NCBI RefSeq assembly: GCF_000091665.1
Contig: NC_001732.1
Span: forward strand, 6,486-38,485
Length of the DNA stretch: 32,000 bases
Reading direction: 5' to 3'
Origin: Methanocaldococcus jannaschii DSM 2661
GTDB taxonomy: Archaea > AGJL01 > Methanococci > Methanococcales > Methanocaldococcaceae
The notes under the pieces: model-generated
Told to the model about the DNA's origin: nothing
The model's input: the letters and a program-made list of their open reading frames with translations, nothing else
Databases searched by the model: none
In this document: piece after piece, positions 1 through 28,864 of the stretch
How the letters are laid out: each line of letters starts with the position of its first letter
How positions within the stretch are numbered: the stretch's first letter is position 1
Made by a program: the position numbers and the translations under genes

Positions 1-903
1 CCTACATCTTGTTCCATCATAATACTCGATATAGATTCTTTTTTTATCTTCAGAATTTGCAATTTTATCAGCACACTCTACAAGTTTTTCTTCAATTTTT
101 TTCAAATATTCCAACCCAGAAATTTGTTTTTTATTCTCCTTACACTCATATTTTACAGTAAGTGCAGCATATACTAAAAATGACTTTTGAACTGAAGAAT
201 TCTCACCAATACCAAGTAATTTTGCCAAATGCTCTTCAGGAACCAATATTGGATTCAATTTTGCAGGTAGAATATGAGTATTCCTCATTTTCACGTATTC
301 TCCATGCGGATCAACTATTACAATATTCATTTTTCCCTTATCCTTTTCAAACAATTCTTGGACTAACACGGCTATAGTATTTGATTTTCCAGCCCCAGTC
401 ATTGCCAATACAGCAAAATGCCTTGAACAAAGCTCTTTTGCATTTAATTTCACTTTTGTTGAAGACCTTACCTTTAAATAACCTACTTCAATACTACCAT
501 TTGAAAATATTTTAGCTAACAAATCATCCTTAGTCAAATAAACATTCTGAGGCACATTTATTGGATATACGTTAGATTCAATACTTCCACTTTCATTATT
601 AATTACTCCCAAAATTTTTGCACTCGCTAAAAATTTAGAAGAATTATTTAACATTTCTTCAGAATATATAACACCCCTAATCTTAGCTAACTCACTAGCA
701 TCTTCCGATTTATCACCAATTAGAGCATTAACAGAAACAATCTTGGTAATTTTTGAAAGAAGATAGTCCCCATGTGTATTTTTTGTAATGACAAACTCTC
801 CCTTCTTAATCTTGTCAATAACCTGGTTCTCAATTACAAACTCAAATTCATTAACATTTTTTGAAGCTACAACAGTCCCAACAACTACACTGTTTATAAC
901 CAT
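1..903 (-). CDS. HerA/DUF87-type ATPase, N-terminal 301 codons; the rest lies beyond the left window edge
   Basis: Own translation of the minus strand from ATG (reverse complement of 901-903): MVINSVVVGTVVASKNVNEFEF... Walker A RHFAVLAMTGAGKSNT (about nt 379-405) is followed by NIVIVDPHGEY, the HerA-type motif pair. The frame stays open to nt 1. It is absent from the ORF track because no stop lies in the window. Confidence 0.8.
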   Translation of the reverse strand, partial: MVINSVVVGTVVASKNVNEFEFVIENQVIDKIKKGEFVITKNTHGDYLLSKITKIVSVNALIGDKSEDASELAKIRGVIYSEEMLNNSSKFLASAKILGVINNESGSIESNVYPINVPQNVYLTKDDLLAKIFSNGSIEVGYLKVRSSTKVKLNAKELCSRHFAVLAMTGAGKSNTIAVLVQELFEKDKGKMNIVIVDPHGEYVKMRNTHILPAKLNPILVPEEHLAKLLGIGENSSVQKSFLVYAALTVKYECKENKKQISGLEYLKKIEEKLVECADKIANSEDKKRIYIEYYDGTRCR

Positions 904-961: not shown

Positions 962-1045
962 TTTTCGATATCTAATAGTGCAGAATAAAGTTTAATAGTA
1001 CCTAAGGATTCTAGTATTATCATAGCCATAAAACAGGGTGAATGT

Positions 1046-1255
1046 ATGAAAGTGTATGATATTAGAAAAATACAAAAGCGTGTTACAAAATCCAGAGGAA
1101 AAACCTACTATACCTATTATATTAACCTCCCAGCTGAATGGATTGAAGATGCAAATTTAAAAGAAGGAGATAAAGTTGAGATATCTGGAGATAAAGATAA
1201 GCTATGTTTAAAAGTCGTGTATAGACAAAAAGATGAAAATAATAAAAAACAATAA
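1046..1255 (+). CDS. AbrB/MazE/SpoVT-fold small DNA-binding protein (regulator or antitoxin-like)
   Basis: GGGTGA lies 4 nt before the ATG. YYINLPAEWIEDANLKEGDKVEISGDKDKLCLKV matches the swapped-hairpin pattern (IPk..ve.lglkeGD.v.i..d.d.i.i). Confidence 0.65.
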   Translation: MKVYDIRKIQKRVTKSRGKTYYTYYINLPAEWIEDANLKEGDKVEISGDKDKLCLKVVYRQKDENNKKQ

Positions 1256-1294
1256 AATAAGCATACACATCAACATTAAAGGGTGAAAATATGA

Positions 1295-1621
1295 ATGAAT
1301 TATATGAAATTTATGTGGAATTCAGAAGATGGGTTTATTGTTGAAGAACAACATAAAGAAGAAATTCCATTTGAAGACTGGATTGTCAACACCGTAGAAC
1401 AACTTAAAAATTTACAATATACTAGATATACTTTTGAAGAACTTACCCCCAAGACAAAAAATTTAGAAGCATACAACAAATTATTGGAAATCTTAAAAAA
1501 ACATACAAATATGGACATAGAAAATAACGTAAAAAGAATTTATCATTGCATTGCTGAAAATAATAACTACAAATATGAAATTGCCTTTTATATAGTAATA
1601 AGTAAAAATTGGAATGAATAA
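1295..1621 (+). CDS. Hypothetical protein, 108 aa, second gene of the operon
   Basis: Long ORF on the operon strand, 39 nt after the AbrB-like gene, with GGGTGA upstream. No motif recognised. Confidence 0.5.
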   Translation: MNYMKFMWNSEDGFIVEEQHKEEIPFEDWIVNTVEQLKNLQYTRYTFEELTPKTKNLEAYNKLLEILKKHTNMDIENNVKRIYHCIAENNNYKYEIAFYIVISKNWNE

Positions 1622-1672
1622 AGAAACATAAAAACCAATTCTATGCATATCCATTTATTTAGGTGTCAATGT

Positions 1673-2677
1673 ATGATTGAAACCATCCACATCAAAAATT
1701 TTAGAGGTATTAGAGAGCTTAAATTGGAAAATTTGGGACAGATAAATATAATTGCTGGGAAGAATAATGCTTCAAAATCAAGTATCTTAGAAGCTTTGGC
1801 ATTGTTTTTAAGTGCAAAGGAGGGGTTTTCATTATTTATAAAAATTTTAAGGGAGATATTACTTTGGAGAGGATGGTATGGTGAAAAAAGTATTTATGAT
1901 TTGTTCTATAAAAATTCTAAAGAACTTGAAGTAAGTGTTAAGTTCTTAAATCAAGATTTTGCAAATTTAACCCTAAAAAATTCTAATCAAAGTTTTGCAA
2001 ATAAAAATATTGCAGTAGAACTTAAATCTGATAAAAATTCTTGGAGTGGACGTTTTGATTCACATTTAATACATCCAGATTATATATCATCAATATTAAC
2101 CTCTGCAGAGGCTACACAAAGTAATTTTGAATTTATAACATCCTTAACATTAATAAAGTTTGGATATATTGAGAGCATATACTCTCAAGCCTATGAGACT
2201 CAAGTTTTACAGGATGCTATAAGATTGCTTAGAGAAGCATACCCAGAAGTTAAAAGTCTAAGCCCTCTCCAAAAGTATAACAAGTGGATAATTCATGTTT
2301 AAACTGAATATGGAGTTTATCCATACTATGTAATGGGAGAAGGGTTTAAAAGTGCTTTAATAATTGCATTATTAACCTCTATACTAAAAAATGGTTATCT
2401 TTTGATAGATTCAGCTGAAGCCTTTCATCACCCCTCCTCACTTGAAATTACTTCACAAATGCTTACAAAATCTGTAAAGAATAATAACGTTCAAGTATTT
2501 TTAACCACTCACAGCCTTGAATTGATAGACTTCCTCCTTGAACATGCCAGTAAAGAAGGTATAGAGGGCAGATTAATCTACATGCGTAGAGATGGGGAAA
2601 ATTTAATTAGCAGTATGGAATCCTTTGAAAATGTTAGGGAAATGAGAGAAACTCTCGGAATTGATTTAAGGGGGTAA
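1673..2677 (+). pseudogene. ABC/OLD-type (RecF/SMC-like) ATPase interrupted by an in-frame TAA at 2300-2302
   Basis: ORFs 1643..2302 and 2333..2677 share one frame and are separated only by TAA. The likely start is ATG 1673 (AGGTG upstream). N-terminal half: IKNFRGIRELKLENLGQINIIAGKNNASKSSILEAL. C-terminal half: GEGFKSALIIALL, LLIDSAEAFHHP, VFLTTHSLE. Confidence 0.7.
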
Positions 2678-2679
2678 TC

Positions 2680-3405
2680 ATGAGGATTTTATTACTTGAG
2701 GGAATTACGGATGTTGCATTCTTCATTCCAATATTAAAGAAATTATATGGTTTTTCAGAAATTAGTTGTGATGGTATTATTAGAGCAGAAAAAATGGGAG
2801 ATATATCAAAACCAATATGTTTAGAGAATGAAGATGTTAAGTTGATAGTTTTCCACTCTGGAGGAAAATCAAAACAAAAACATGCTTTGACAGCAATGCT
2901 TACGGCTATTAAAATGGGTTATTTATCTAATATTAAAATCTTGGGCATTGCAAGGGATATAGACCAAGAGCATGATGTCAAAAACTGGACAAAGAGTATA
3001 ATAAAAAATGCTGGATTTGAAGTTAAAGAGGGTGACAAATTTTTGATTATAGAGGATTTAAACTTAAAAATAGCTGTTTTGGGTATTGCTAATTATGATG
3101 AGGATGATTTTAACATCCCATCATTTGAACTAAAAAGAGAACTCGAGGCAGTAATTACTGATATGGCTAAAGAAATCAGCATCATAGAAAAATTCAAAAA
3201 CTCTTTAGAATCATTAAGTAACGATGCTGAAAGAAGATTAAAGCCAAAAGACATAACGCACGTTTTAGCCATTGCTAAAAATTTTGACGGAGACTCCATG
3301 TCTGGCTTATATAGGAAATTTATTGAAGAGCAGATAAATAATAAAAATAAAGTGAACTTTTTATTAACACTAATATGTATTCTACCATGCCTCACCATCT
3401 TTTAA
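2680..3405 (+). CDS. Toprim-like protein (OLD/AriB/RloB-like nuclease partner of the ATPase)
   Basis: The start lies 2 nt after the ATPase stop, with GGGGGT upstream. MRILLLEGITDVAFF supplies the conserved Glu and ILGIARDIDQEHD about 85 residues later supplies the DxD, which is Toprim spacing. Confidence 0.55.
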   Translation: MRILLLEGITDVAFFIPILKKLYGFSEISCDGIIRAEKMGDISKPICLENEDVKLIVFHSGGKSKQKHALTAMLTAIKMGYLSNIKILGIARDIDQEHDVKNWTKSIIKNAGFEVKEGDKFLIIEDLNLKIAVLGIANYDEDDFNIPSFELKRELEAVITDMAKEISIIEKFKNSLESLSNDAERRLKPKDITHVLAIAKNFDGDSMSGLYRKFIEEQINNKNKVNFLLTLICILPCLTIF

Positions 3406-3674
3406 CTCTTTTAAACATTTTGATAAAGATTTATGACATCTTTTACATCCTTTACTTCGACAACATCCTCCTCAATCTTAAAAATCTGCACAATTACCTC
3501 AATGTTCAATATTTGGACTTTTATTTTTTGAGATTCCTAAAAAAACTCTAAGGATTGTGCTTATTTTAAAAACACTAACAGGGTGAAAATAAAAAGTTGC
3601 AACTAAAAATAAGGAATGTTTTATTAGAATATTTAAAATTAAATAAACACGTTTTGAGAGTTTGTAATCTAACA

Positions 3675-3700
3675 GTGAATTGACTTCAAAGTCAATTCAC
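3675..3700. repeat. Palindrome family copy P1 (GTGAATTGACTT-CA-AAGTCAATTCAC)
   Basis: Perfect 12+12 nt inverted arms around a CA centre, read directly. Confidence 0.95.
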
Positions 3701-3767
3701 AAAAAAGACTCTCCATTTAGAATTACATTATAAAAGTCTCTAAAAATAGTGATATGATAAAATAAAC

Positions 3768-3887
3768 TTATTTAACTTTTACTGTTTTCTTTTGCATGTT
3801 TTTGCTAAGTCGGCAGTTTCTTTATCTATTTCCAAAGCTAAATTCTCTAATATCCTCAAGCAAAGTATTCTGCTGCAGCCCTACTAG
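3768..3887 (-). pseudogene. Internally deleted relic of an archaeal histone gene
   Basis: Aligns by eye to the intact histone gene at 29732-29935 (ttattt...aacttttactgtttt...gtattctgctgcagccctacta). About 24 nt near the 3' end and the whole 5' third are missing. The upstream block ttaaaacctacaaaaatattac is retained at 3896-3932. Confidence 0.6.
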
Positions 3888-4201
3888 CTTATTCATTAAA
3901 ACCTACAAAAATATTACCATTTTTGCATATATGCTGGATAAAAGTTGCTCTATCACTTAAAAGTTGCAGTTTTTTAATTGAAAGTTTTAAAGTTCTGATA
4001 ATAGAAATTCAAACATTAAAAATAGTATGTTGGATAAAACCATATAAAAACTATTTTTCCATTGAAATCACAATTTTTTCATGATACACAAAAGTTTAAA
4101 TACTTTTGTTTTGATAAAATTTTGAAAAAAATATTTATACTCGAAATTTTAAAGAAATAAGTATGTATAATCTCAGTTAAAAATTACTGAGGGTGATAAA
4201 T

Positions 4202-6215: not shown

Positions 6216-7454
6216 CTATTTGAGTACTTTTAATATTGTCTTTTGTTCTTCGTTAGTAATGTTTTCTAAAATCTTTTTTATCAATTCTTTTTCTTCATTT
6301 TCAACTTCAAAATACATATTACTAAGAATATATACAAAATCTTCTAAGAGTTTTGAATTTTTTTGGCTAATTTTGTATATAGATTTTAGAATAATATCTC
6401 TATGTATATGAATGTTTAGTAAATCGTGTAAAAAAGAAATATCATTGTAAGCTAACACGTAATTGCATATTACATTTATAAGTTGGTTGTACATTGTTTT
6501 TGAAATTCTCCCACTGTTTAAAAGATTTATTACTATATTTTTAATAGTCCATGATGGATGATCTATAAAAAAACTTAAAGCTTTGGCTTTGATACTAAAA
6601 CTATCATCATATATCATTTTTGCAATTTTTAGCTGTATAAGTTCTTTAGATTCTTTGTCAATATCCTGCAAACTAAGATATTTTCTAGCAAGTTCAATAT
6701 ATACAATTTTTGCTTCAAAATTATAGCCTAAGTCAATATTATTACTTTTTTGAAGAATGTCTAAATTATACTCTTCTCGTAAAGTTTTTGTAGAAATATT
6801 GTTTTTTAGGCAAATATTACAGATTGTGTTAAGAATTTCTAGTGATAATACTTTAAAACGTTCACGTGTTGCAAAAGTGTTACAAAACTTTTTGTATTCC
6901 TCTAAACGATAATATTCATTAATTAATAACTCTAGGTGCTCTTTTTCTGCAAAGCTTGTAAATACTCTCAATATTAGAATCCTATATGTTAAATCTTTTA
7001 AAACATCAACTTCAAAAATCTCTTCATTATCAATTTTTAGATATTGTGATGTAATTATTTTAATTATTTTCTTTATGGAATATTTTCTTAGTTCTACATC
7101 CTTTTCTATAATTCTCCTAAGCTCTAGCATTGCTTGAACTTTAAGACCTCTATGGGCATATTTTAAAAACTTGAATAATGCATCTACTTTCTTTTCTGAG
7201 TTTTCTTTTAGTAATATAAGTCCTAAAATAACTCGTTGTATTTCCACACCATACTTATGCACATAATGACTGTTAGGATGAGTTTTAGATCTAATTATTG
7301 TCCTATGTGGTTTTATAAATTCTATAAAATCATCATATATTTTATCTGGAATAAAGATACTCTCCTTCAATAAAACTCTAAAAATTTGACGAGAATCAAT
7401 GCCAAGTTTAGATTTTTTGAGCTGGGCTATAACCCCATCATAATCTAACTTCAC
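6216..7454 (-). CDS. Hypothetical protein, 412 aa, predicted helical, no motif recognised
   Basis: Long ORF with a GTG start preceded by GGTGGG. Convergent with the MCM-like gene. Confidence 0.6.
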   Translation of the reverse strand: MKLDYDGVIAQLKKSKLGIDSRQIFRVLLKESIFIPDKIYDDFIEFIKPHRTIIRSKTHPNSHYVHKYGVEIQRVILGLILLKENSEKKVDALFKFLKYAHRGLKVQAMLELRRIIEKDVELRKYSIKKIIKIITSQYLKIDNEEIFEVDVLKDLTYRILILRVFTSFAEKEHLELLINEYYRLEEYKKFCNTFATRERFKVLSLEILNTICNICLKNNISTKTLREEYNLDILQKSNNIDLGYNFEAKIVYIELARKYLSLQDIDKESKELIQLKIAKMIYDDSFSIKAKALSFFIDHPSWTIKNIVINLLNSGRISKTMYNQLINVICNYVLAYNDISFLHDLLNIHIHRDIILKSIYKISQKNSKLLEDFVYILSNMYFEVENEEKELIKKILENITNEEQKTILKVLK

Positions 7455-7840: not shown

Positions 7841-8945
7841 ATGAAATTTTTCAACAGGGAGAAAGAGATTAATGAGATACTTCGAATTTTAAATAGAGAG
7901 CCAGACGATATTTATTTTATATATGGACCCTTAAACAGTGGAAAAACTACTTTAATAAATCACATAATAAACAATGAATTAAAAAAATCCAATAAAAAAT
8001 ATGCTGTCTTTTATGTTAATTTCAGAGAGTATGATATTTACATCAATGGATAATTTTGTTGAGGCATTGTTTGAAATAGACGAAAATTCGAAAGAAAAGA
8101 AGATAAAATCATACATAGAGAGTTTTACAAAGGGAGTTAATGATATTATAAACTTATACTATGGGATAAAGATTCCAGAGCCAATATTGGATAAGTTTTT
8201 TGGAGAAAAAGAAAAGGGGGGATTGGTTTTTAAGTTTATTAGAGATTTATTTATGAGTTTGAATAAGAAGGGAGTTCAGCCAGTATTCATTTTAGATGAA
8301 TTGCAGATGATTAAAGATATTGTTATGAATGGAGGAAAGCCATTATTAAAAAGCTTATTCCAATTTTTGGTTTCTTTAACAAAGGAGAGGCACATAGCAC
8401 ATGTTTTTTGCCTAAGTTCAGATAGTTTGTTTATTGAGTATGTTTATAATGCTGGAGAGTTAGAAGGAAGGGCGAAATATCTATTGGTTGATGATTTTGA
8501 TAAAGAAACTTCCTTAAAATTTATGGACTTTTTAGCAGTAGAAGGAAATATTAACTTAACTAATGAAGATAAAGAGTTAATTTATTCTTATGTTGGGGGA
8601 AAGGCAAAGGACATAAAGTATGTTATTGAAGAAAGTAAGTTTAAAGACTTAAGAGAGGTTTTGGACTTTATGTTAAAAGATGAGGTTTCCAAATTGAGAA
8701 AATTATTGGTTAAGATAAAAACTAAAAAGATTGCAGAAGTTGAGTATGAAAATGTTGTTAAAGCATTAAAATTATTTAAAGACAATTATGAAATCAACGA
8801 ATACCTTATGGACGAGAATACAAAAGAATTCTTAATTAAAAGGAATATCTTATTCTTAAACCCCGTAGAGGAGATTTTAAAGCCACAAAGTTATTTAGTT
8901 TGGAACGCAATAAAAAGAGTATTACAAAATATAAACGATTTTTAA
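7841..8945 (+). pseudogene. 'Archaeal ATPase' family P-loop NTPase, frameshifted near 8030-8045
   Basis: ORF 7841..8053 ([14 protein letters not shown]...GPLNSGKTTL...FYVNFRE) and ORF 8001..8945 (...[17 protein letters not shown]...FILDELQ...) together align end to end with the intact neighbour 8962..10059. The frame changes after FYVNFR at the (ag)3 run. Confidence 0.75.
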
Positions 8946-8961
8946 AATTATTGGTGGGATT

Positions 8962-10059
8962 ATGAAATTCTTCAATAGGGAAAAAGAAATTAATGAAATT
9001 CTTTTAATCTTAGAAGAAGAACCAAATAATATTTATTTTATTTATGGTCCTTTAAATAGTGGAAAATCAACCCTAATAAGAGAAGTTATAACTAATAGAT
9101 TAGACAAGTCAAAATACATACCATTTTTTATTGATTTTAGAACGAGAAATATTTTAAACGTTGATAATTTTATTGAATGCTTGTTTGAAGTGGATGAAAA
9201 ATCAAAAATAGACGATTTTAGGGAATATGCCAAATCATTAGCTGATTTGTTGGTTAAAGGTAGTGAAGAGATTAGCAAATACTACTTGGGTATGCCTATT
9301 AAAGTGCCAAAACCATTCTTTGATAGAATTTTTAGTAAAAGAGATAAATCAGCAGATGTCTATCAATATATTGAATATTTATTTGCTAAATTAAATGAGA
9401 AAGGTAAAAAGCCAATTTTAATATTTGATGAATTACAGATGATTAGGGAGATAACTTTAAACGGGAATAGGTTACTATTGTGGAGTTTATTCCAGTTCTT
9501 AGTTGCCTTAACTAAAGTTCAACATCTATGCCATGTTTTCTGCTTAAGTTCTGATAGTTTGTTTATTGAATACATCTACGGAAAAGCTGAATTAAAGGGG
9601 GGAGTTGATTATATCTTAGTTGATGATTTTGATAAGAAAACTGCCTTAAAGTTTATGGATTTTTTAGCCAAACAAAAGAATATTAATCTAACTAATGAGG
9701 ATAAGGAGCTAATTTATTCTTATGTTGGTGGAAAGGCAAAGTATATTTATGATGTTATTGTCAAGTTAAAAGCTGTTAAAGATTTGAAATATATTTTAGA
9801 GACAAAACTTGAAGAGGAGCGGAATCACTTGGAAGAATTATTGGAGAAGGTTGAAGAAGATTATGAAGGCATAAATTATGATGAAGTCTTAGAAGCATTG
9901 AAATTGTTTAAAGATAATTATGAACTTCCAAAAAGTAAGATAAAAAGGAAAATTAGGATATTTTTAATTAAAGAGAATATTTTATTCTTAAATCCACAAA
10001 AAGGAACTTTAAAGCCACAAAGTTATTTGGTTTGGAATGCTATAAAGAGAATGTTGTAA
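8962..10059 (+). CDS. 'Archaeal ATPase' family P-loop NTPase (STAND-like, probable C-terminal winged helix)
   Basis: GGTGGG RBS. Walker [11 protein letters not shown], Walker B ILIFDELQ. Tandem paralogue of 7841-8945 and paralogue of 22690-23709. Confidence 0.85.
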
Positions 10060-16809: not shown

Positions 16810-18108
16810 TTAAAAGAAGATTATATCTAAGAGTTCATCATATATTTCTATTTCACCTTTAAGGATGAGGTCGATAAGTTCATCTTCACTAACGATAATG
16901 ATTTTACCGTTAATATTGATTTCAAATTGATTATTTCCAATGTATCTTATGTTCGTGTTGTTGATAGCTTTTCTTAATCTTTTAATTAAGTCTTTACATG
17001 CTTCTTGTATTGTGTATTTACATAACCTCCTATTGTAATACTTTGCAACTTTGCTGTTAAAGAACCACATACCCATTTCTACATATCTTTGGTCTAATTT
17101 GCATTTCTTTGAATATTCATAGAGGAATATTTTATATGGATAAAGAGTTTTAAAATCATTGCTATCTATTTTTGCATTTTTACGAAGTTTTTGAATACAT
17201 CTACATTCTGTATAATCAAATTTCTCTAAAACTTCATTAATGTCAAAATTATAATTTAATTTACATTTACATTTAACTAATTCCTCAATGACTTTTTTAA
17301 CTACTCTATCAATAGGCTTGTATAACAAATCCCTGCAATCTCCATATAACATCAAATTGTGAATAATTGAAATATCTCTAAGGAATAGACAAGCTATTTT
17401 ATCTCCAACTCCTCTAATTCTAATTAAAAAGTTGTATGCGTCGTAGATATTTCCATTTCTTAATAAATTAAGTAGATAAGACACTAATGAAGCTGTTATT
17501 TGAGTATTACTAATAATGTATAATAAACCACATTTATTTGTGGTAGTTGAATTTATGTTACAACTCGGATTTATATTGTATCTTGGGTCTAAAGTGTCAC
17601 TTGTATAGAAGCCCAATCCTAACATTCTTAGATTATTTTCATAGCAATTGCATATATTACTAATCCAAGTATTGTTATGTAAATTGAAATTTCTATCTAT
17701 GCAAACTGCCCCAATAAATCCATGGATTCTTACTCTTATGGAGCTATAACTACTCCCAAAAGGTCTCATATAAGCATAATTTGAAATAAACAATTGCAAT
17801 GATTCACTTAAATCATTTAAATGATTTGGGAATATTATCTCCCAAAATGCTTTTAATTCTAGTGCTTCATGTAACCTTCCGACATCTTCAAAGAATTTAA
17901 ACCATGCACAGATACAATCTTTATTAGCATATTCTCCAGAACAATAATTTTTTCTTAATACTTTAAGTATATCTTCAACTTCTTTTTCTATATTTTTTCT
18001 CTCTTTAATAACTGGGATAAAGAACTTTTTAATAATATCTCTTGCTAATGGACAGTTTCTAATCCTGTTGATAAATTGCTGAACTACCATCCCCACTCCT
18101 CTCCACAT
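16810..18108 (-). CDS. Cys-rich protein with HhH-GPD-like (DNA glycosylase-like) motif
   Basis: LIRIRGVGDKIACLFLRDISII...LLYKPIDRVVKKV resembles the helix-hairpin-helix GVG.K.A plus downstream P.D..V..V of endonuclease III/OGG-type glycosylases. The true start may be ATG 18090 (MVVQQF), after GGAGAGGAGTGGGG. Its stop is 1 nt from the phosphatase stop. Confidence 0.45.
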   Translation of the reverse strand: MWRGVGMVVQQFINRIRNCPLARDIIKKFFIPVIKERKNIEKEVEDILKVLRKNYCSGEYANKDCICAWFKFFEDVGRLHEALELKAFWEIIFPNHLNDLSESLQLFISNYAYMRPFGSSYSSIRVRIHGFIGAVCIDRNFNLHNNTWISNICNCYENNLRMLGLGFYTSDTLDPRYNINPSCNINSTTTNKCGLLYIISNTQITASLVSYLLNLLRNGNIYDAYNFLIRIRGVGDKIACLFLRDISIIHNLMLYGDCRDLLYKPIDRVVKKVIEELVKCKCKLNYNFDINEVLEKFDYTECRCIQKLRKNAKIDSNDFKTLYPYKIFLYEYSKKCKLDQRYVEMGMWFFNSKVAKYYNRRLCKYTIQEACKDLIKRLRKAINNTNIRYIGNNQFEININGKIIIVSEDELIDLILKGEIEIYDELLDIIFF

Positions 18109-18647: not shown

Positions 18648-21119
18648 TCATAATACTTGTTTGATTTTTTGTATTATTGAGTAGTTTTTAATTATATTGA
18701 AATCAAGGGCATAAACATGTCCTCTTTTACATCCTGATATTACAATATTGTCTTTGATGGACAAATCTAACACTGCACTTTCTGTTTTAAACTTCCATAT
18801 TTCCTCACCAGTGTTAATATCAAGAGCATAAAGATAATTATCACATCCTAATAATACAGCATCATTTTTAATAGACAAACCATTCACATCCCCATCTGTC
18901 TTAAATGCCCATAAATTCTCCCCTGCATTAATATCAAGAGCATAGACACATTCTCGATTACATCCCAATATTACAATATCATCTTTAATAGATAATCTTA
19001 ATACAGACCCTACTACCTTAAATCTTTCCATCTTCTCTCCTGTATTAATATCAAGAAGATAAACATAACCTCCCCTACATCCCAACAATACATTATCCTT
19101 TTTAATAGATAAACTCTTTACCTCTCCTTCTGCCTTAAACCTCCATAGTTCTCTACCAGTGTCAATATCAAGAGCGTAAAGATAATTATCACATCCAAAT
19201 AGCAAAATGTCATTTTTTATGGATAAATTCCGTATGGATTTTCCTGATTTTGCTTTAAACTCCCATAACATATTTCCTGCATTAATATCAAGGGCAAGTA
19301 TATATCCTTTTTTACATCCCAACACAACAATATCGTCTTTAATAGATAAACTCCTTACATCATGCTTTATCTTAGACCTCCATATTTCTCTTCCTGTATT
19401 AATATCAAGAGCATAAGCATACCCTTCCTCCAATATTTTTCCATTTTTCAACATGACAATGCTCTCAAATATATTTCCACATCCTAATACAACAATATCA
19501 TCTTTAATAGACAAACCCCATACTGTATCCTCTGCCTTGAATTCCCATAATTTCTTACCAGTTTTAATATCAATGGCATAAACATGTCCCGAAACACATC
19601 CTAATATTACAATATCACCTTTAATAGATAATAACCTTACACCCCCCTCTGCCCTAAACTCCCACAATAACTCATCTACTCTTTTAATCCCTAAAATATC
19701 CAATATAAACTTACCAACATTAATTGCTAACTCATCATTTGAGTTATTTACCAATTCAATTAACTTATTCATATAATAATTAAATACAGCCCTATTTTCA
19801 TTGAAAATGTTTTTAAATCTGCTGTATATTTCTTTATAGTTTGATGTGTTTAAATTATCTATCTCTTGTTTTAGGATTTTGTCAATTTTTTCTGGCCTCA
19901 TGTCATCTACATTATCTCCTTTAAATTTTGTAATTGTTAATACTTCTGTAAATCTTTCTTTGTATCGTATGTTAAATTCATCTTCAAACTCTACAACAAT
20001 ATCTATCGGTAGTTTTCCTTTAACTTTTGGATTTATAAAAAGGTTAATGACTTTTGTGTCTCTTCCTCTAATTTTTATCGGCTCTATGTCTTTAAATAAA
20101 ATATCTTCTTCGTTTATTATTGAAATTTTCGATATTGTTATATCTTTTAATGATTTGTTTGTTATTTGTATTGGTAGTTCATCCCATTCATTCAAATTAA
20201 GTGATTTTTTTAATAGGGTTAAATCTATCTTTACTATTTCTTTCATTATATTAGTTAGTTGTGGCCTAACTCTTTGTATTTTTGAATACAGGTTAGTATC
20301 AAGGGCATAGACACACCCCCACATGTCTGCCAATATAGTAACATCCCCACTTATCAATAAATCACTTACATGCCACTCTCCACCAAACTCTAATATTTTC
20401 TCACCTGTTTTAATATCAAGGACATAAAAATATTCACACCCATATTCATCCTCACATCTCAATATTATTTTATCATCTTTGATAGATAACTCCCATACAC
20501 ACCACTCTGCTTCAAACTCCCACAATTTACCTCCTGTCCTAACATCAATAGCATAAATGTATTTATCCCCATCACCCAATATAACAATATTATCTTTGAG
20601 AGAAAAACCCCACATACGCTCTCCTACCTTGGACTCCCATATTTTATCCCCAGTCATAACATCAAGAACGCAAACATGCCCACCTCTATATTCCAACATT
20701 ACAATATTATCTTTGATGAATAAACTATCTACATTGTGCTCTACTTTATATTCCCATATTTTATTCCCTGTCTTAATATCAAGGGCAAAAAGATGGTTAC
20801 TACACCCTAATATTATAATATTATCTTTGATATCTTTGATGGACAAATCCCATACACTCCCCCCTGCCTTAAACTCCCATATTATGCTATCTTTTAAAAT
20901 ACATAACATAAACTTATCAATTTCAAGTGATAACTCATTATCATCTAAATTTTTCATTAACTCAATTAATTTATCCACGTAATAATTAAATATATCTCTA
21001 TTTTTGCTAAAAACATTTTTAAATTTGTCATATATTTCTTTATAGTTTGATACGTTTAAATTATCTATCTCTTGTCTAATGTTTTCAACTCCATTGATTT
21101 TATTTTCTACAAAAACCAT
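18648..21119 (-). CDS. PQQ-like beta-propeller repeat protein with internal tandem duplication
   Basis: GGTGA precedes ATG 21119 (the track starts at 21131). There are many ~40-aa units such as DI.TGK.LWEFKAE..V..LSIKDDIVVLGC..G.VYALD. A helical module occurs twice (EIDNLNVSNYKEIYDKFKNVFSKNRDIFNYYVDKLIEL / EIDNLNTSNYKEIYSRFKNIFNENRAVFNYYMNKLIEL). No signal peptide was seen. Confidence 0.8.
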   Translation of the reverse strand: MVFVENKINGVENIRQEIDNLNVSNYKEIYDKFKNVFSKNRDIFNYYVDKLIELMKNLDDNELSLEIDKFMLCILKDSIIWEFKAGGSVWDLSIKDIKDNIIILGCSNHLFALDIKTGNKIWEYKVEHNVDSLFIKDNIVMLEYRGGHVCVLDVMTGDKIWESKVGERMWGFSLKDNIVILGDGDKYIYAIDVRTGGKLWEFEAEWCVWELSIKDDKIILRCEDEYGCEYFYVLDIKTGEKILEFGGEWHVSDLLISGDVTILADMWGCVYALDTNLYSKIQRVRPQLTNIMKEIVKIDLTLLKKSLNLNEWDELPIQITNKSLKDITISKISIINEEDILFKDIEPIKIRGRDTKVINLFINPKVKGKLPIDIVVEFEDEFNIRYKERFTEVLTITKFKGDNVDDMRPEKIDKILKQEIDNLNTSNYKEIYSRFKNIFNENRAVFNYYMNKLIELVNNSNDELAINVGKFILDILGIKRVDELLWEFRAEGGVRLLSIKGDIVILGCVSGHVYAIDIKTGKKLWEFKAEDTVWGLSIKDDIVVLGCGNIFESIVMLKNGKILEEGYAYALDINTGREIWRSKIKHDVRSLSIKDDIVVLGCKKGYILALDINAGNMLWEFKAKSGKSIRNLSIKNDILLFGCDNYLYALDIDTGRELWRFKAEGEVKSLSIKKDNVLLGCRGGYVYLLDINTGEKMERFKVVGSVLRLSIKDDIVILGCNRECVYALDINAGENLWAFKTDGDVNGLSIKNDAVLLGCDNYLYALDINTGEEIWKFKTESAVLDLSIKDNIVISGCKRGHVYALDFNIIKNYSIIQKIKQVL

Positions 21120-21405
21120 TCTCATCACCAAAAAAACTTTTATTTATTTCAAAATTTTTCTAATAACACACCATTCAATTATCGAAATTAGATTAATAAT
21201 TCCATTACAAGTGTCTCTAACACTTCACCATATTTTTATTATAATTTCATTATACCTTAATAGCATATTAAATTCAATAACCCAACTTTAATTTTGCACT
21301 TATTAAGATTTGTAACATTATCAATGCCCCCTACCATAATTCCATAATGAGTTTTTGGAGGTTTCACTAAAAGAAGTAATCTACAGCATTCTTTAATTAT
21401 ATGTC

Positions 21406-21583: not shown

Positions 21584-22363
21584 ATGGTTGTAATTTCAAT
21601 TGCAAATCAAAAAGGGGGTGTTGGAAAAACAACAATAGCATTAAACCTATCATTTACACTTGCAGAAAAGGGGTATGATACTTTAGTAATCGATTTAGAC
21701 CCACAATTCAACTTATCCTTTGGAATTTTGGGAATGAAATTATTAGATTATGCTGATAAAAATATTGGAATACTATTATCAAAAAATTCTGTTAAGAAGA
21801 AAGAAATTGAAGAGTCTATTATAAAAATTAATGATAAGTTAGATTTAATCCCCTCCCACTTGCAGCTTTCTGCTGTAGAAAAAATGTTAGTTAATGCTTA
21901 TGCAAGGGAAATGAAGTTGAAAAATATCATTAACCAAATCAAAGAAAATTATGACTACATAATAATTGATAATGCCCCATCATTAGGACTATTTTTAATA
22001 AATTCATTAGTGGCATCTGATTATATTATCATCCCATGTGAGCCAAGTTATTTTAGTATTGCAGGAGTTCAACTAATGTTAGATACTGTTGAGGAAATAA
22101 AAGAATCAAACTTGAATCCAAAACTTAAAGTTTTAGGGTTTATTTTCAACAAGTACTCTAAACAATCAAAAATTCCACAAAAGAGGTTAGAACAGTTAAA
22201 ACAACTCTATCCTAACATTCCAGTAATTGGAGTAATTCCAAGAACTATTACTGTTGAAAAGGCAGAACGTGAGGGAAAACCTGTGTTTAAATTTGATGCT
22301 AATAATCCTGCAAGTGTTGCATTCTCAGAACTTGCTGAGTGGGTGATAGAAAATGTCAAATGA
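21584..22363 (+). CDS. parA: ParA/Soj/MinD-family partition ATPase
   Basis: GGTGAG RBS. Deviant Walker A NQKGGVGKTT (21605-21634), DLDPQ, and IIIDNAP Walker B. Confidence 0.92.
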   Translation: MVVISIANQKGGVGKTTIALNLSFTLAEKGYDTLVIDLDPQFNLSFGILGMKLLDYADKNIGILLSKNSVKKKEIEESIIKINDKLDLIPSHLQLSAVEKMLVNAYAREMKLKNIINQIKENYDYIIIDNAPSLGLFLINSLVASDYIIIPCEPSYFSIAGVQLMLDTVEEIKESNLNPKLKVLGFIFNKYSKQSKIPQKRLEQLKQLYPNIPVIGVIPRTITVEKAEREGKPVFKFDANNPASVAFSELAEWVIENVK

Positions 22364-22689: not shown

Positions 22690-23709
22690 TTATTGCATTG
22701 CATTTATAATCTCCTTTATAGCATGCCATTCGATAATAGATGTCGGTTTGATTATTCCATTTATCACATCATAAAACAATATTTCATTCTCAATTAGGAA
22801 TTTTAAATATTTCATTTCCTCTTTTTTAACTTCCTTATCATAGGAGATTTTTATCTTGTCCTTGAATTTAGATAAAACATTATAAAGCCCCTCCTCATCT
22901 AAATCGGTTGTATCTATAAGGTATTTTAGCCCATCTTTTTCAACATTAATCCACTGTTTTATAGTTTGTTCAACAGATAAACCTAACTTCTTATTATTTA
23001 TCAGTTGAGAAATCTCATAAGGCAATGATAAATAGTCTAAAGCATAATTAATCTCTTCTTCGCTAAAACCTTCTTCTTTTAAAATATTCCTTATAGTTCC
23101 TTTTCTTAACCAGTCAATTAAATAATACTCAGAGGCATTTTTTAATGTTGAATTCCTATAGATTTCATCAATAAATAATGTATCAGAAGTTAAGCATATA
23201 ACATGGCATAAATGTTCCATTTTAGTTAGAGAGACGAATAAGTTAAACAATTCGTTTAATAATGACTTTCCTCCATTAAAATAAATATTCTTCAACTTTT
23301 GTAACTCATCAATTATTAAAACTGGCTTTTTTCCTTCTTCAACAACTGCGTTAATACTCTCATTTATCTTAGCAAAGACATCATTTAGGCATAAGTTATT
23401 AAAGTCAAAATTCTCTTCAATTCCAAACTTACAAACTCCCAAGTTAAGTTCTAACTTATTTAATAGATATTTTTTATCCGACTTTTCAAAAAATACTCTT
23501 AAAAACTCATCCCTTGTTGGTGTTGCATATTTTCTTAAATTATAATAGAAAAACACTATATTACTGTTTTCTAACTCCTTAATAACTCTCCTCATTACCG
23601 TAGATTTACCAGATGATTTAGGACCATAAACAAAAAGGATAGAATTAGGTTCTAACTGACAGTAGGTTTTTAGATAGTTGAGTTCTTTCTCTCTATCATA
23701 GAATTTCAT
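22690..23709 (-). CDS. 'Archaeal ATPase' family P-loop NTPase, third paralogue
   Basis: GGGTGA lies 4 nt before ATG 23709 (MKFYDREKELNYL). Walker A GPKSSGKSTV, Walker B VLIIDELQ. Confidence 0.85.
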   Translation of the reverse strand: MKFYDREKELNYLKTYCQLEPNSILFVYGPKSSGKSTVMRRVIKELENSNIVFFYYNLRKYATPTRDEFLRVFFEKSDKKYLLNKLELNLGVCKFGIEENFDFNNLCLNDVFAKINESINAVVEEGKKPVLIIDELQKLKNIYFNGGKSLLNELFNLFVSLTKMEHLCHVICLTSDTLFIDEIYRNSTLKNASEYYLIDWLRKGTIRNILKEEGFSEEEINYALDYLSLPYEISQLINNKKLGLSVEQTIKQWINVEKDGLKYLIDTTDLDEEGLYNVLSKFKDKIKISYDKEVKKEEMKYLKFLIENEILFYDVINGIIKPTSIIEWHAIKEIINAMQ

Positions 23710-24036
23710 AATTTCACCCAAATAAACTCTTTATTTTAATTAAAAATATTATTTTAGAGTATTTAAAAGTTGAACATGCCATATTACATTAGCTGTGAAT
23801 CTAAAGTTGAAAATTAACCTTTACTGTCTTTATGACATCATAACCACACTACCTATTGTATTATTTTATTACATCATAATTTAATTGCATTATAACATAA
23901 TAACATTATTCCATAATTCTTTATACAATAATTATTTAACAATGGCATTAAACAATTACTTAAAAATTTAAATACACAAAACAACATTGCAATATTGCAA
24001 TAATAAAATAATTCATTAACTAAAAATAATAAAGTG

Positions 24037-25045: not shown

Positions 25046-28000
25046 TTAGGTAATCCGCAGCAATCCAGGTTTTGGCTCGTATATTACCCCCAACTTTTTC
25101 AACTTTTCTAATGCTTTATAGAATACTTCTTCAACAAACTTCAATTTTTCAACAATTAGTTCATATAATTCCATTTCTAATATTTCCCCTCCATTTTCTT
25201 CAATTTTCTTTTCAATAACTTTTTCACACTTTTCAACACTGTTAGAGTTAATATTTTGTTTTATAATCTCATATAGCGTTTTAAACTCTTTGTTAAGTTC
25301 TTTTATTTCAACTACTGCATTTTCCCCCAGTTTTTTTACTCCTCTAATTACACAATTAAATATTGCTCTTATCAATCTTCTAACTTCATCCAAGGTTAGA
25401 GTGAATCCACATTCTTCTTTTATAACCTCTATTAATTCTCTAATTTTGAATTTTTGTCTTTCAATGGCAAAATCTCTAACTTTTATTAACACTTTTGCAA
25501 CTAATGACCTTAACCCTAACTTTCTCCTATCTAATCTCTCATCATCTTCTCCTACTACAATATTCCATACTGCTCTTATAATCCTTTGAATCTTACCCCA
25601 TTTTGATGGAGGGCATAAGAATGTTTTTAGAATTAGCTCTTCTATAATTCTTGCCAATGTTGAGAGTTTATCCTTATGTTCCTCTAACAATTTCAAATCA
25701 ATATGGTAAATTTTCTTTGTTTTTCTATCTTCATTTTCATTAATTTCTTTAACAATTTTCTTATACTCGTTAATTTCTTCTAAGCATTTTTTAATAGTAT
25801 TTTCATCTAAGTTCGATTTTTTATCATCATCTTTTCCTTTATTCAACATTAGGTTATACACTTCTATAACTTCTGGAATATTATAAACATCTTTTAACAC
25901 GTTTATACTCCTGTTAATCCTTTTTGAGTGTTTTTTTATTAATTGTGGAGTGTATTCATCCCTACAATCTTTAAATTTCTTATAATTATTATATTCCAAG
26001 GCATTTTTGATTTCATTCACTCCATATTCTTTAAATGCAATAATTATATGTTTTGCACTAACTTTTTCAAGATATTCGAGATAATTATATTTTAAGAACT
26101 TATCCAGCTTACTTTCTTTTAACTCTTTTATTGTTTTAATTGCAAACTCATAGCCAGTAGTTTTTTCTAAATACTCTTTTAGTAATTTATAATCTCTTGT
26201 AATATGGGCCTCTAATAGACTATTATAAATGTGTGCTATTTCATCTTCATCTAAAACCCAATCCTTCTTTTCCTCATCATAATATATTGCATTTTGAATT
26301 TGAGAAATCAACACTTTCTTATAATTTTTATCCAATTCTTTTAAAACTTCAATATCCGTTTCTAAATACTCTTTTAATAGTTTATAATTTTCCTTAAACA
26401 TTTCAATCATTGCATTATAATCAATAATCATTGGCTCTTCTTCTCTTTCTTTAAAAGGTGCTGTGACAATTAACTCTCCCCCACCATTCCTACATCTGGC
26501 AATAAACTGTCTAATGGTGGTAGCACTCTTACAATACAATGCCCATACCAAATCAACATGATTTTTAATATTAACTCCCTCAGAAATGACTCTTGTGGCT
26601 AAAATTAACCCCTCTTCTGGTACTTTTTCTTCATTAATAATCATTTTACTTGCCTTGTCAATTCCAACAGTCTCTCTTGTTATAACGTAAATTGGCTTGT
26701 TAAAACCATACAATTCTAAAGTATATTTTATATTCTCAATCATTTTCTTATTATCAACTAAAACTACAGCATTTTTTATCCATCCCTGTCTAAACATTAG
26801 TAGGATGTATTCACAAAACTCTCCAATAATATTTTTTGCAATATGGATAGAACATCTTTCAAATAATTTTTTCTCATCTTTAAATTCCACTTCTATAACT
26901 GGATAGTTATTCAAATTAATTAACTCTGGAGTTGCAGTTAGTAAGACACAACCTCCAGCCCTGTCTATACACTTTTTTACCCCTGTTATTGCCCTTTTTC
27001 TAAACTCTTTTTGGATTACTAAATCATGTGCTTCATCTATTGCCAATAGAATATCCTCTTCATTAGCAACTTGAATTTTCTCCCCTTTATAAGTGTCATA
27101 ACATAAATCATTAAGCATATTTTCAACTTGGTCGTAGGTCCCAATGGTCAAATAATGAATAGTATTCTTATCCAATTTTTTCCCATCTTCATAATACATT
27201 GGAACTACTACTCCATCAGCGTGTAATCCTGCCCCTACTTGTAAAACTTGTATTTTATATGGGAATGCCACTGCTATAGCATGTTTTTTAAATACCTCTT
27301 TAATTTCTCTTGTATTTCTTGTTAGAGTATAAGTTTTCCCCCTTCCAGTGTCTGCTTTAAGAAATACTGGAACTCCTTGTTCAATAGATAATTGGTATGC
27401 TTTTATTATAGCCTCTTTTGGTAAGTATCCTTCTGCTTCTATCTTTATTGTTTCTCTATCGAGTAGTTCATTCATTATCTCTCTAACAGTCCTATAAGTG
27501 GATGGCTTTGGATTAATATTGTGTAATTTTAAAAATTCTATTATTTTATCCCTAAATTCTTTAATCATCCATAATCCTGCTAATGCAATAAATCTCATAT
27601 TTGGATCGTGGAAATCTACCATTACTGCATTATATCCCTCATTAATGTAAATAGAACAGTCAGGATTTTTCCCATCATCAAAGAATAAACTCCATAAGTC
27701 TAATCTGGTTCCATTTTTACCATATTTATAATCAATTCCCAAGTAGGAGAGGAGTTTTTCAATCCATCTTTTACCCAATTTTTTAGTTAATTTATCTTGT
27801 ATAGTATATAACCATTTGTAAATTCTTTTATTTATATCTTGCAATATAGTTTTATTAAGATTTGGTTTTTTTATTAATCTATTAATTGTTGTGGTAATGT
27901 TGTTTAATCCTCGCTTATTGTATAATTCTTCTCTTTTTTCATTGAATAATACTTCAAATTCTTTATAATTTTCAATAATTCCAAACTTCTCATACAATAT

Positions 28001-28864
28001 TATTGGAGTTAACAATTTTTCAATATCTTCTTCATCTGTCAACTGGGCTATTGTAACACATGGTCTTGGACTACCATATTTTTCCTTATAATTGTAAGTT
28101 CCTACCAGCCTATCAACTCTTGCCAAATCATACATTGCAATATCTGCCCCTAAATCTTCAGCAATCATTCTTAGTAGTATTAATTCTTCTTCTAAAATAG
28201 GTCTTTCAGGATATAATATGAATCTTAATCCTCCCCCAGTAAATGCCACTTTATGTGGAAGTATATCCTTCTCTACGAATTTTGATAAATATTTAATCAA
28301 TTTTTCCATAATTTCTTCTTCTGTAGGCATTTTGTTTGTCTTCCACTCTTCAACGTCAAAATCAAATGCAATATAACTCCAAGCAGTGGCAGCTCCCGCA
28401 TCCCCTCTTTTTTCCTTTCTTGGGGCAATTCCGACATAAACCCCATCTAATCTTCTTTTCTTTTGTTTTTTAATATACTCATACTGTTTTTTTATTAATT
28501 TTATGATTTCTTCAGTTTTTTCTAAAATATTATCAACGTGTAAATCTGAAATATCTATGAAAAATTGTTTTTTACCCTTAAATTTTCCTAAAAATCTAAT
28601 TTCTAAATACTTAAACTGTTTTACTAATTTTTTCAAAATTTTTTCTAAATGAGTTTCTCCAAGATATACTGAAAATTCTTCTTTATGTTTGACAATCAAA
28701 AATAGCAACTGTGCAATGTGTAATTTTAAATCAGATTCTAAAATATCATCTGAGATATTGTAAATTCCACTAACATTTATTTGATACTTATCAAAAATAG
28801 CTTTTACAGTTTGATCATCCCAATACCGCAAACTTTTTATACTATTAGATAGTATATTATTCAT
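25046..28864 (-). CDS. Archaeo-eukaryotic primase (AEP) domain, SF2 DEAH helicase and C-terminal winged helix; candidate plasmid replicase
   Basis: GGTGA lies 8 nt before the ATG. The AEP motifs are SYIAFDFDVEEW, AFTGGGLRF and DLARVDRLVGTYNYK (about nt 28055-28447). The helicase motifs are FLKADTGRGKTY, LLAIDEAHDL, LLTATP, VISEGVNI and QFIARCRNGG (about nt 26465-27397). The C-terminus is ALEKLKKLGVIYEPKPGLLRIT. Confidence 0.7.
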   Translation of the reverse strand: MNNILSNSIKSLRYWDDQTVKAIFDKYQINVSGIYNISDDILESDLKLHIAQLLFLIVKHKEEFSVYLGETHLEKILKKLVKQFKYLEIRFLGKFKGKKQFFIDISDLHVDNILEKTEEIIKLIKKQYEYIKKQKKRRLDGVYVGIAPRKEKRGDAGAATAWSYIAFDFDVEEWKTNKMPTEEEIMEKLIKYLSKFVEKDILPHKVAFTGGGLRFILYPERPILEEELILLRMIAEDLGADIAMYDLARVDRLVGTYNYKEKYGSPRPCVTIAQLTDEEDIEKLLTPIILYEKFGIIENYKEFEVLFNEKREELYNKRGLNNITTTINRLIKKPNLNKTILQDINKRIYKWLYTIQDKLTKKLGKRWIEKLLSYLGIDYKYGKNGTRLDLWSLFFDDGKNPDCSIYINEGYNAVMVDFHDPNMRFIALAGLWMIKEFRDKIIEFLKLHNINPKPSTYRTVREIMNELLDRETIKIEAEGYLPKEAIIKAYQLSIEQGVPVFLKADTGRGKTYTLTRNTREIKEVFKKHAIAVAFPYKIQVLQVGAGLHADGVVVPMYYEDGKKLDKNTIHYLTIGTYDQVENMLNDLCYDTYKGEKIQVANEEDILLAIDEAHDLVIQKEFRKRAITGVKKCIDRAGGCVLLTATPELINLNNYPVIEVEFKDEKKLFERCSIHIAKNIIGEFCEYILLMFRQGWIKNAVVLVDNKKMIENIKYTLELYGFNKPIYVITRETVGIDKASKMIINEEKVPEEGLILATRVISEGVNIKNHVDLVWALYCKSATTIRQFIARCRNGGGELIVTAPFKEREEEPMIIDYNAMIEMFKENYKLLKEYLETDIEVLKELDKNYKKVLISQIQNAIYYDEEKKDWVLDEDEIAHIYNSLLEAHITRDYKLLKEYLEKTTGYEFAIKTIKELKESKLDKFLKYNYLEYLEKVSAKHIIIAFKEYGVNEIKNALEYNNYKKFKDCRDEYTPQLIKKHSKRINRSINVLKDVYNIPEVIEVYNLMLNKGKDDDKKSNLDENTIKKCLEEINEYKKIVKEINENEDRKTKKIYHIDLKLLEEHKDKLSTLARIIEELILKTFLCPPSKWGKIQRIIRAVWNIVVGEDDERLDRRKLGLRSLVAKVLIKVRDFAIERQKFKIRELIEVIKEECGFTLTLDEVRRLIRAIFNCVIRGVKKLGENAVVEIKELNKEFKTLYEIIKQNINSNSVEKCEKVIEKKIEENGGEILEMELYELIVEKLKFVEEVFYKALEKLKKLGVIYEPKPGLLRIT

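Follow-up and report, generated by a model that had tools for sequence, protein, structure and literature searches.

A probably decaying ATPase-DUF3226 gene pair on the large extrachromosomal element of Methanocaldococcus jannaschii and its intact relatives in archaeal tungstate-transport operons

Organization of the locus

The window analyzed here is a stretch of 32,000 nucleotides (nt) of the large extrachromosomal element of Methanocaldococcus jannaschii DSM 2661, a replicon sequenced in 1996. Positions 1046 to 3405 of the window hold a run of same-strand genes in which an initial annotation, made from the sequence alone, had proposed a compact plasmid-borne defense operon of four genes, encoding an AbrB-like protein, a protein of 108 amino acids (aa), an ATP-binding cassette (ABC) ATPase and a Toprim nuclease. 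The shared strand and the spacing of 39, 51 and 2 nt are as described (taking ATG 1673 as the ATPase start), but the run consists of five open reading frames (ORFs) instead of four intact genes because the ATPase gene is broken in two by a TAA codon (Table 1). The broken ATPase gene and the DUF3226 gene that follows it (positions 1673 to 3405) probably represent an autonomous cassette of two genes that is in decay.

Exact protein look-ups identify four of the products as MJECL09, MJECL10, MJECL11 and MJECL12; the gene for the AbrB/MazE/SpoVT-fold protein was annotated later than these. The peptide motifs quoted in the initial annotation are all present in the translations and, as it had also noted, motifs resembling ribosome-binding sites precede four of the starts: a motif scan places Shine-Dalgarno (SD)-like sequences of the GGTGA/AGGTG type there. 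For MJECL10, AGGTG lies 8 nt ahead of ATG 1673, and the public annotation starts at 1643. A pattern scan found no long T-run terminator between the same-strand genes, and a search with Rfam at gathering thresholds returned zero RNA families across the whole window. A scan for bacterial promoters and terminators, which is unsuited to archaea, gave the result expected for shuffled sequence, and megablast of positions 1000 to 3500 against the PLSDB plasmids gave no match.

Table 1 Features of the ATPase-DUF3226 locus and its upstream flank (coordinates are those of the window).
Feature	Coordinates	Strand	Remarks
HerA-type ATPase gene, 5' part	1..903	-	start ATG 903-901; runs past window start; divergent, outside cassette
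AbrB/MazE/SpoVT-fold DNA-binding protein, 69 aa, WP_064496991	1046..1255	+	Pfam MazE_antitoxin
MJECL09, 108-aa lineage-restricted orphan	1295..1621	+	no family match
TATA-like octamer TTTATATA	1587..1594	+	perfect archaeal pattern, within MJECL09 3' end
MJECL10, ABC ATPase N-terminal fragment, 209 aa	1673..2302	+	Walker A GKNNASKSS (1757-1783) and hypervariable middle domain
Premature in-frame TAA	2300..2302	+	codon 210, at family-conserved Glu codon
MJECL11, ABC ATPase C-terminal fragment, 114 aa	2333..2677	+	signature-like GEGFKS, Walker B LLIDSAEAFHHP (2394-2429), H-loop TTHS
MJECL12, DUF3226 protein, 241 aa	2680..3405	+	Toprim-like N-domain (predicted) and helical C-domain

The ATPase gene and its premature stop codon

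When the two fragments are joined, the ATPase matches the Pfam families AAA_15 (1-374 of 374, 6e-18) and AAA_21 (1-304 of 304, 3e-14) end to end and above the cut-offs; the PADLOC matches are PDC-M38A (5e-38), AbiLi (5e-35), AriA (1e-18) and Old/GajA (about 1e-15), in agreement with the earlier assignment to OLD/PARIS-like ABC ATPases. Each fragment is also recognized alone, MJECL10 by AAA_15 (2e-13) and by the PADLOC models AbiLi (8e-20) and PDC-M38A (2e-17), and MJECL11 by PDC-M38A (2.5e-17) and AbiLi (1e-15), in both cases aligned to the C-terminal ends of the profiles. The public annotation already lists the ATPase as two genes, and the NCBI protein of M. jannaschii to which MJECL10 is 100% identical is named 'AAA family ATPase'.

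The in-frame TAA separates the half with Walker A from the half with the signature motif, Walker B and the H-loop. In the intact proteins of two related loci, L005 and L006, the residue aligned to the stop is Glu (IIHV*TEYGV in the window, where the asterisk is the stop, vs. IHVET.YGV, within IHVET.YGVYPYYVMGEGFKS), and the same column is conserved as Glu in the 32-sequence family alignment ('Vet..gvyPYY.MGeGFK'); thus, the stop can be accounted for by one GAA to TAA substitution. In the motif scan, ATG 2333, the start of the C-terminal fragment, has no SD-like motif upstream, and there is no alternative in-frame start within 2303-2332; therefore, the ten conserved residues TEYGVYPYYV ahead of the signature motif are left unencoded. 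A sequencing error is unlikely, given that the TAA is identical in independent Logan assemblies (L001-L004, of which L001 is identical across 2.5 kb) and that the public annotation has the same two-gene split. Recoding is unlikely as well, the codon being TAA and neither TGA (selenocysteine) nor TAG.

Two other properties of the ATPase set its clade apart. In ABC ATPases, a Glu normally stands directly after the Walker B Asp. Throughout the clade, Walker B reads LLIDSAE, without a catalytic Glu following the Asp, and LIDE is retained in two more distant relatives; the subclade of the window additionally has Ser for the Gly that precedes the Walker A Lys. Judging from these motifs, the ATPase may bind ATP yet hydrolyze it slowly. 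The second property is the variability of the middle domain. In the family alignment, residues 81-140 are the least conserved region and, when the ATPases of L012 (7001-8059) and L005 (471-1484) are compared, identity drops to ~40%, with indels, over roughly residues 91-180, against 96-98% in WtpB, DUF3226, WtpC and both ends of the ATPase. From this pattern, the domain seems to have been swapped or to evolve fast, and it may be involved in recognition or sensing.

MJECL12 and the DUF3226 family

MJECL12 is a member of Pfam DUF3226 (PF11536; 1e-18, 68 bits vs. a cut-off of 27), one of several families that had been listed as candidates, and its residues 2-238 match PH0156 of Pyrococcus horikoshii (PDB 2P62; 1.4e-33). 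The crystal structure of PH0156 dates from 2007, as a structural-genomics entry without assigned function. Across 9 sequences of the family, residues E7, G8, T10, D11, R92, D93 and D95 are invariant; the C-domain is helical and contains the family-invariant block RRLKPKD..H.LAIAK..DGDSMSGLYRK. A model of the N-domain (predicted local distance difference test, pLDDT, 87) places E7 after a strand at 2-6 and D93/D95 after a strand at 87-92, and superposes on 2P62 with a template-modeling (TM) score of 0.75. In Foldseek searches of PDB, made with two models, and of BFVD, the only structures retrieved were 2P62 and generic alpha/beta folds.

Relatives of MJECL12 gave several, mostly weak, matches to Toprim-type profiles. 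PF20469 (OLD-like_TOPRIM) matches five of the 9 relatives, over residues 4-34 only (best 8e-5), a single match being above the cut-off, and barely so (23.5 vs. 23.2). Among the PADLOC models, PDC-M38B matches six of the 9 (best 2e-7), Mad4 five (best 1e-4), Old two (best 0.004) and AriB one (0.002). Mad4/DUF4276 has been described as belonging to Toprim and bearing the Glu...DxD signature (PMC12065111). Taken with the placement of the E7 and D93/D95 residues, these matches point to a Toprim-like N-domain in DUF3226. No relative turned up when viral contigs were scanned with the DUF3226 profile; in the searchable literature, from which subscription papers may differ, no mention of DUF3226, PDC-M38 or MJECL09-12 was found.

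Genomic neighborhoods of the relatives

In each of the about 19 lineages examined, the ATPase gene and the DUF3226 gene lie side by side. Co-occurrence, which had been proposed as a check on the operon, thus holds for these two genes but not for the two upstream genes, which are found in the plasmid lineage only. In every locus with enough flanking sequence, the DUF3226 gene lies directly 3' of a single-ORF ATPase gene (319-384 aa), beginning 1-24 nt after it in intact pairs; all 30-odd intact ATPase relatives are single ORFs.

At 16 distinct loci (L005, L006/7, L009/28, L010, L011/32, L012-14, L019-20, L021, L025-L027, L029-L031 and L033-36), the intact pair lies between wtpB (permease) and wtpC (ABC ATPase), with the binding-protein gene upstream. 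The flanking WtpA, WtpB and WtpC proteins of L012 and L006, the two loci tested, score above the NCBIfam equivalog cut-offs, which identifies a tungstate transporter. The genes of these loci are separated by gaps of a few bases, and in L019 and L021 the ATPase gene, as called, starts 28 nt before wtpB ends. The hosts include Thermococcus eurythermalis (CP008887), a T. litoralis-type genome, Pyrococcus sp. NA2 (CP002670) and several metagenome-assembled genomes of Thermococcus or other Thermococci, as well as a short contig GTDB-labelled Archaeoglobus sp., whose near-identical metagenome counterpart, L027, extends to the wtpC start. Hydrothermal metagenome contigs with the same arrangement encode ATPases that are 71-72% identical to that of the window. 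We found no paper that describes the pair within a wtp operon in the searchable literature, from which subscription papers may differ, and the linkage may therefore be undescribed so far.

Only three lineages carry the pair outside wtp, all of them of the low-GC (28-30%) Methanocaldococcus type: the plasmid of the window, a related plasmid (L016-18) and L015. Two of the three are decayed. The third, L015, has the closest intact pair (82% identity), lacks AbrB and the gene for the 108-aa protein (orf108), and has a 187-nt non-coding, TATA-containing leader ahead of the pair. More distant cassettes (L022 and L023; ATPase identity of 28-30%) are located at unrelated places; the partner gene of L022 was considered as a DUF3226 member, and the resemblance is only at chance level.

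Mobile or toxin-antitoxin genes were observed next to some of the wtp operons that contain the pair. Directly downstream of the operon in L012 (10717-11728), there are genes for a ParE toxin and for a nucleotidyltransferase/HEPN toxin-antitoxin pair. In two T. litoralis-type loci, IS200/IS605 elements adjoin wtpC on its downstream side (L035, 7196-8404; L036, 3056-4675); both contain TnpB and the one in L036 contains the Y1 transposase as well.

The genes upstream of the cassette

The gene transcribed divergently from the run had been described as a HerA-type ATPase, and it is indeed a HAS-barrel/DUF87 gene that continues to the window edge; in the identical locus L001, its product is 519 aa long (HAS-barrel, DUF87 and HerA_C) and is followed by NurA. 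The proposed AbrB/MazE fold of the first protein in the run is likewise borne out by a match to the swapped-hairpin profile PF04014 (MazE_antitoxin; 5e-7, 30 bits vs. a gathering cut-off of 24.7); the score against TIGR01439 is slightly under the cut-off (26.3 vs. 28.3). The AbrB gene adjoins herA in both L001 and L016, and the AbrB copies of the window and of L016 are 98.6% identical, with a ratio of non-synonymous to synonymous substitution rates (dN/dS) of 0.02.

MJECL09, the product of orf108, matches no Pfam, NCBIfam or PADLOC family. A word search of 5.8 billion proteins gave 2 matches and a HMMER scan of 1.84 billion representatives gave 4, three of them being near plasmid relatives or fragments and the fourth marginal (E 8e-4, 39% identity, a 307-aa protein). 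Its match to AbiLii, the sole one in the region, is at 0.018 and was judged to be due to chance. The MJECL09 counterpart in L016 is interrupted in its N-terminal part by a stop codon and a frame disruption. Homologues of AbrB and orf108 are present solely in the M. jannaschii plasmid and in its relative L016, and at no other ATPase-DUF3226 locus. Since these two genes are restricted to the plasmid lineage, orf108 is an orphan and the pair of L015 does without them, the unit consists of two genes, not four, and the claim of a four-gene operon with two extra components fails; AbrB and MJECL09 are part of the plasmid backbone rather than of the cassette. By its sequence conservation, AbrB is a backbone gene under strong constraint, and because this constraint persists in L016 despite the disruption of orf108, its role is independent of orf108. 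The TATA-like octamer, which a pattern scan located ~80 nt ahead of the ATPase start codon, is possibly the cassette's own promoter.

Decay of the cassette in two plasmids

The stop codon in the ATPase gene is accompanied by a lesion in MJECL12: after residue ~222 (nt ~3347-3405), the protein is non-homologous to L015 and L016, its native C-terminal ~20 residues having been replaced. The 3' end at ~3347-3405 resembles a rearrangement breakpoint. Four Logan assemblies of M. jannaschii (L001-L004), which belong to a single sequencing project (ERR97657xx), lack one T at ~3124, in a T-run at ~3122-3126; the resulting frameshift cuts MJECL12 to 150 aa.

The related plasmid, L016-L018, seen in three independent metagenome assemblies, keeps HerA, AbrB, a remnant of orf108, the ATPase and DUF3226, with proteins 76-99% identical to those of the window, except for orf108 at 63%. 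There, the reading frame of the ATPase gene shifts once, at about aa 224, and that of the DUF3226 gene twice; because these lesions differ from those of the window, decay was independent in the two plasmids. Between the window and L016, dN/dS is 0.08-0.42 for the cassette fragments and 0.31 for HerA. Values of this kind indicate that most of the divergence took place under constraint, before inactivation, so that the inactivations are recent. Thus, the nonsense codon in the ATPase, the replaced 3' end of MJECL12 and the frameshifts in the sister lineage contradict the proposal of an intact defense module, and the cassette on the M. jannaschii plasmid is very probably inactive.

The two plasmids also differ in the gene downstream of the cassette: in the related plasmid, MCM is encoded on the opposite strand, with only 27% identity, and its gene is adjoined by an archaeal histone gene (L016, 6831-7034; also L017 and L018).

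Comparison with known systems

The best full-length match of the joined ATPase is PDC-M38, a PADLOC candidate system with the same two-gene layout, A then B; one PDC-M38B model also gives the commonest PADLOC match of the DUF3226 relatives (six of the 9), the best E-value (2e-7) coming from another PDC-M38B model. However, PDC-M38 is a candidate system only, MJECL12 itself matches no PDC-M38B model, and the archaeal clade differs by its own Pfam family, DUF3226, with a distinctive conserved C-domain, by the absence of the usual Glu from Walker B and by its fixed position in wtpABC. The lactococcal AbiL system is, similarly, a plasmid-borne two-gene combination of an ATPase and a small partner, and positions 1-330 of 340 in the AbiLi profile cover ATPase residues 1-322 (5e-35); no DUF3226 member, however, matches the AbiLii model at E up to 10.

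PARIS, the proposed class 4 of the OLD family, shares with the window pair the separate ATPase and Toprim genes, and AriA matches the window ATPase in two partial stretches. In that system, the AriA ATPase scaffold restrains the AriB Toprim nuclease, the two being encoded by separate genes (PMC11464382, PMC10568477). In contrast to PARIS, the partner in the window is DUF3226 and not the PADLOC AriB family, which MJECL12 does not match, and Walker B of the window clade is DSAE instead of the usual Asp-Glu. OLD classes 1-3 (P2 Old, GajA and the retron Eco8 effector) have in common with the cassette an ABC ATPase head and a Glu...DxD Toprim-type domain. The Old/GajA models match only the N-terminal ~50 residues of the window ATPase, the similarity being confined to motif regions, and in these classes the ATPase and Toprim parts are fused, whereas in the window family they are separate genes in all loci. 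Judged by profile matches of both genes, the cassette falls within no named system (no AbiLii match, and AriB only once, at 0.002).

Two further comparisons concern single proteins. PH0156 (2P62) is a whole-length homologue of MJECL12, which differs in lacking the native C-terminal ~20 residues. Cran1 of the Sulfolobales, a class 5 OLD-family protein, is an archaeal ATPase-nuclease with a conserved non-defense neighborhood, for which a housekeeping role has been reported (PMC12796447). Its described neighborhood, and not a comparison of sequences, makes it a precedent for the wtp-embedded clade; unlike the window pair, Cran1 is a fused protein, is paired with a membrane protein and has a role in the cell cycle (PMC12796447).

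Interpretation of the cassette

The interpretation that we favor, and consider probable, is that positions 1673-3405 are the decaying remains of an autonomous cassette in which gene A encodes an ABC ATPase of the SMC/RecF/OLD type (AAA_15/AAA_21), whose middle domain is hypervariable, and gene B a DUF3226 protein of the PH0156 family, with a Toprim-pattern N-domain and a conserved helical C-domain. The analogous systems PARIS, Septu, Gabija and Menshen suggest that an oligomer of the ATPase would bind and restrain the nuclease-like partner, which would be released or activated upon a signal sensed by the variable middle domain; nuclease activity under ATPase control and a role in defense would likewise follow from this analogy. 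The ancestral cassette was most likely an ATPase-controlled pair with a Toprim-like effector, of the PARIS/AbiL/PDC-M38 kind, such as bacteria employ against viruses.

Several observations weigh against this interpretation, either against the inactivity of the plasmid copy or against its derivation from a defense system. MJECL12 retains the catalytic-type residues E7, D93 and D95; both its 241-aa and its 150-aa forms are present in public assemblies, the 241-aa form being the commoner; and reassembly of the ATPase from its two halves is conceivable. The Toprim assignment made initially stands as far as the E7...D93xD95 pattern and the weak matches of relatives go, but MJECL12 itself matches no Toprim model in Pfam and no PADLOC model, and the generic folds returned by Foldseek are those of GTPases and nucleoside phosphorylases, with no Toprim, OLD or GajA structure among them. 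Given the DSAE Walker B, a mechanism driven by ATP hydrolysis, on which the analogy draws, may not hold. Finally, the neighborhoods seen are wtpABC operons and not defense islands; such a constant location of the intact relatives, in a housekeeping tungstate-transport operon, is atypical of defense cassettes.

The last of these points leads to a different view of the family, in which the pair is a fixed, co-expressed part of a wtpA-wtpB-ATPase-DUF3226-wtpC operon in hyperthermophilic Euryarchaeota, serving tungstate uptake as an accessory, operon addiction or nuclease-based control of wtp rather than defense, and the plasmid copy is a misplaced relic that escaped and decays because its role is missing. 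We regard this as rather unlikely, although much of the neighborhood evidence is in line with it: 16 distinct loci have the order wtpB-ATPase-DUF3226-wtpC, with Wtp proteins above the equivalog cut-offs and the 28-nt overlap of ATPase and wtpB in two of them; the non-wtp lineages are all low-GC and of the Methanocaldococcus type, and two-thirds of them are decayed; and Cran1 sets a precedent for a non-defense archaeal ATPase of the OLD family (PMC12796447). A conflict system, however, would better account for the nuclease-like partner and for a middle domain that is hypervariable and apparently recombines, and both the distant cassettes L022 and L023 and the closest intact relative, L015, lie outside wtp. 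Moreover, we know of no role of ATPase-DUF3226-type proteins in ABC import. The partner and the variable ATPase domain thus point to conflict, and the rigid operon position points elsewhere.

Much less room is left for the functional OLD/PARIS-like operon of four genes on the plasmid, with AbrB and the 108-aa protein as extra components, which we consider very improbable. The order AbrB-orf108-ATPase-DUF3226 is preserved in L016, the ATPase and Toprim-like homology is real, and the single strand, short gaps, SD-like motifs and lack of a long T-run terminator between the genes are what such an operon would have; yet the ATPase is interrupted by TAA, in L016 the AbrB copy is still 98.6% identical with orf108, ATPase and DUF3226 all disrupted, and neither AbrB nor the orphan orf108 is present in the 16 wtp-embedded loci or in the intact L015. 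The stop codon together with the neighborhood data largely refutes this explanation. A narrower version, whereby AbrB and MJECL09 form a unit of their own, independent of the pair (a MazE-type antitoxin with an unrecognized toxin, or a regulator with its target), is unlikely: orf108 is similar to no toxin family and is disrupted in L016, where AbrB is constrained and keeps its place beside herA. In favor of such a unit are the MazE/AbrB fold, the 39-nt gap, the presence of both genes in two plasmids and the AbrB dN/dS of 0.02. Still more doubtful is a split but working system, in which MJECL10 and MJECL11 reassemble into an ATPase that controls an active MJECL12. Here, the break falls between structural halves, and in the related plasmid the ATPase is interrupted close to this junction as well (about aa 224), but DUF3226 is in three pieces in that plasmid, so that its junction-proximal break is a sign of decay. 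The dN/dS below 0.5 of the fragments, which is no proof of function because it is expected if inactivation is recent, the preserved E7, D93 and D95 of MJECL12 and the NCBI annotation of both halves as proteins would be compatible with reassembly; the absence of TEYGVYPYYV from either fragment, the lack of an SD-like motif at ATG 2333 and the single ORFs of all 30-odd intact relatives argue for a broken gene.

With regard to the decaying cassette, much was already known, namely the annotated genes, the solved structure of DUF3226 and the familiar class of the ATPase, and the result for the window is mostly corrective, an apparent archaeal plasmid defense operon becoming a broken cassette beside two unrelated genes. 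The DUF3226 partner, the DSAE Walker B and the wtp embedding are variant features of the ATPase-plus-Toprim kind, and the DUF3226/PH0156 family can now be read as a putative nuclease-like partner of an OLD/AbiL-type ATPase. The pairs locked into wtp offer a genetically tractable case of possible recruitment of an ATPase-Toprim immune-type module into archaeal housekeeping operons, as Cran1 suggests for another OLD class, with the hypervariable middle domain and the Walker B without catalytic Glu as experimental handles.

Other features of the replicon

Between MJECL12 and the MCM gene of the window, there is a non-coding stretch of ~790 nt (3406-4192), which may be a regulatory or origin-related region; in addition to short direct repeats, it contains a perfect 12-nt palindrome (3675-3686/3689-3700). 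Two long ORFs on the minus strand, 6216-7454 (411 aa) and 16810-18108 (431 aa), match no Pfam family at 1e-4. Three genes are paralogous 'archaeal ATPases' (PF01637 with an MJ1010-like C-domain), at 8001-8945, 8962-10059 and 22690-23721 (minus strand); the one at 8001-8945 matches the profile from position 78 onward only, and an N-terminal truncation is possible. Further plasmid cargo comprises an 826-aa PQQ/beta-propeller protein (18648-21131, minus strand), a 1271-aa protein with only a weak match to the ResIII helicase (25046-28864, minus strand) and a ParA/MinD-type ATPase (21584-22363).

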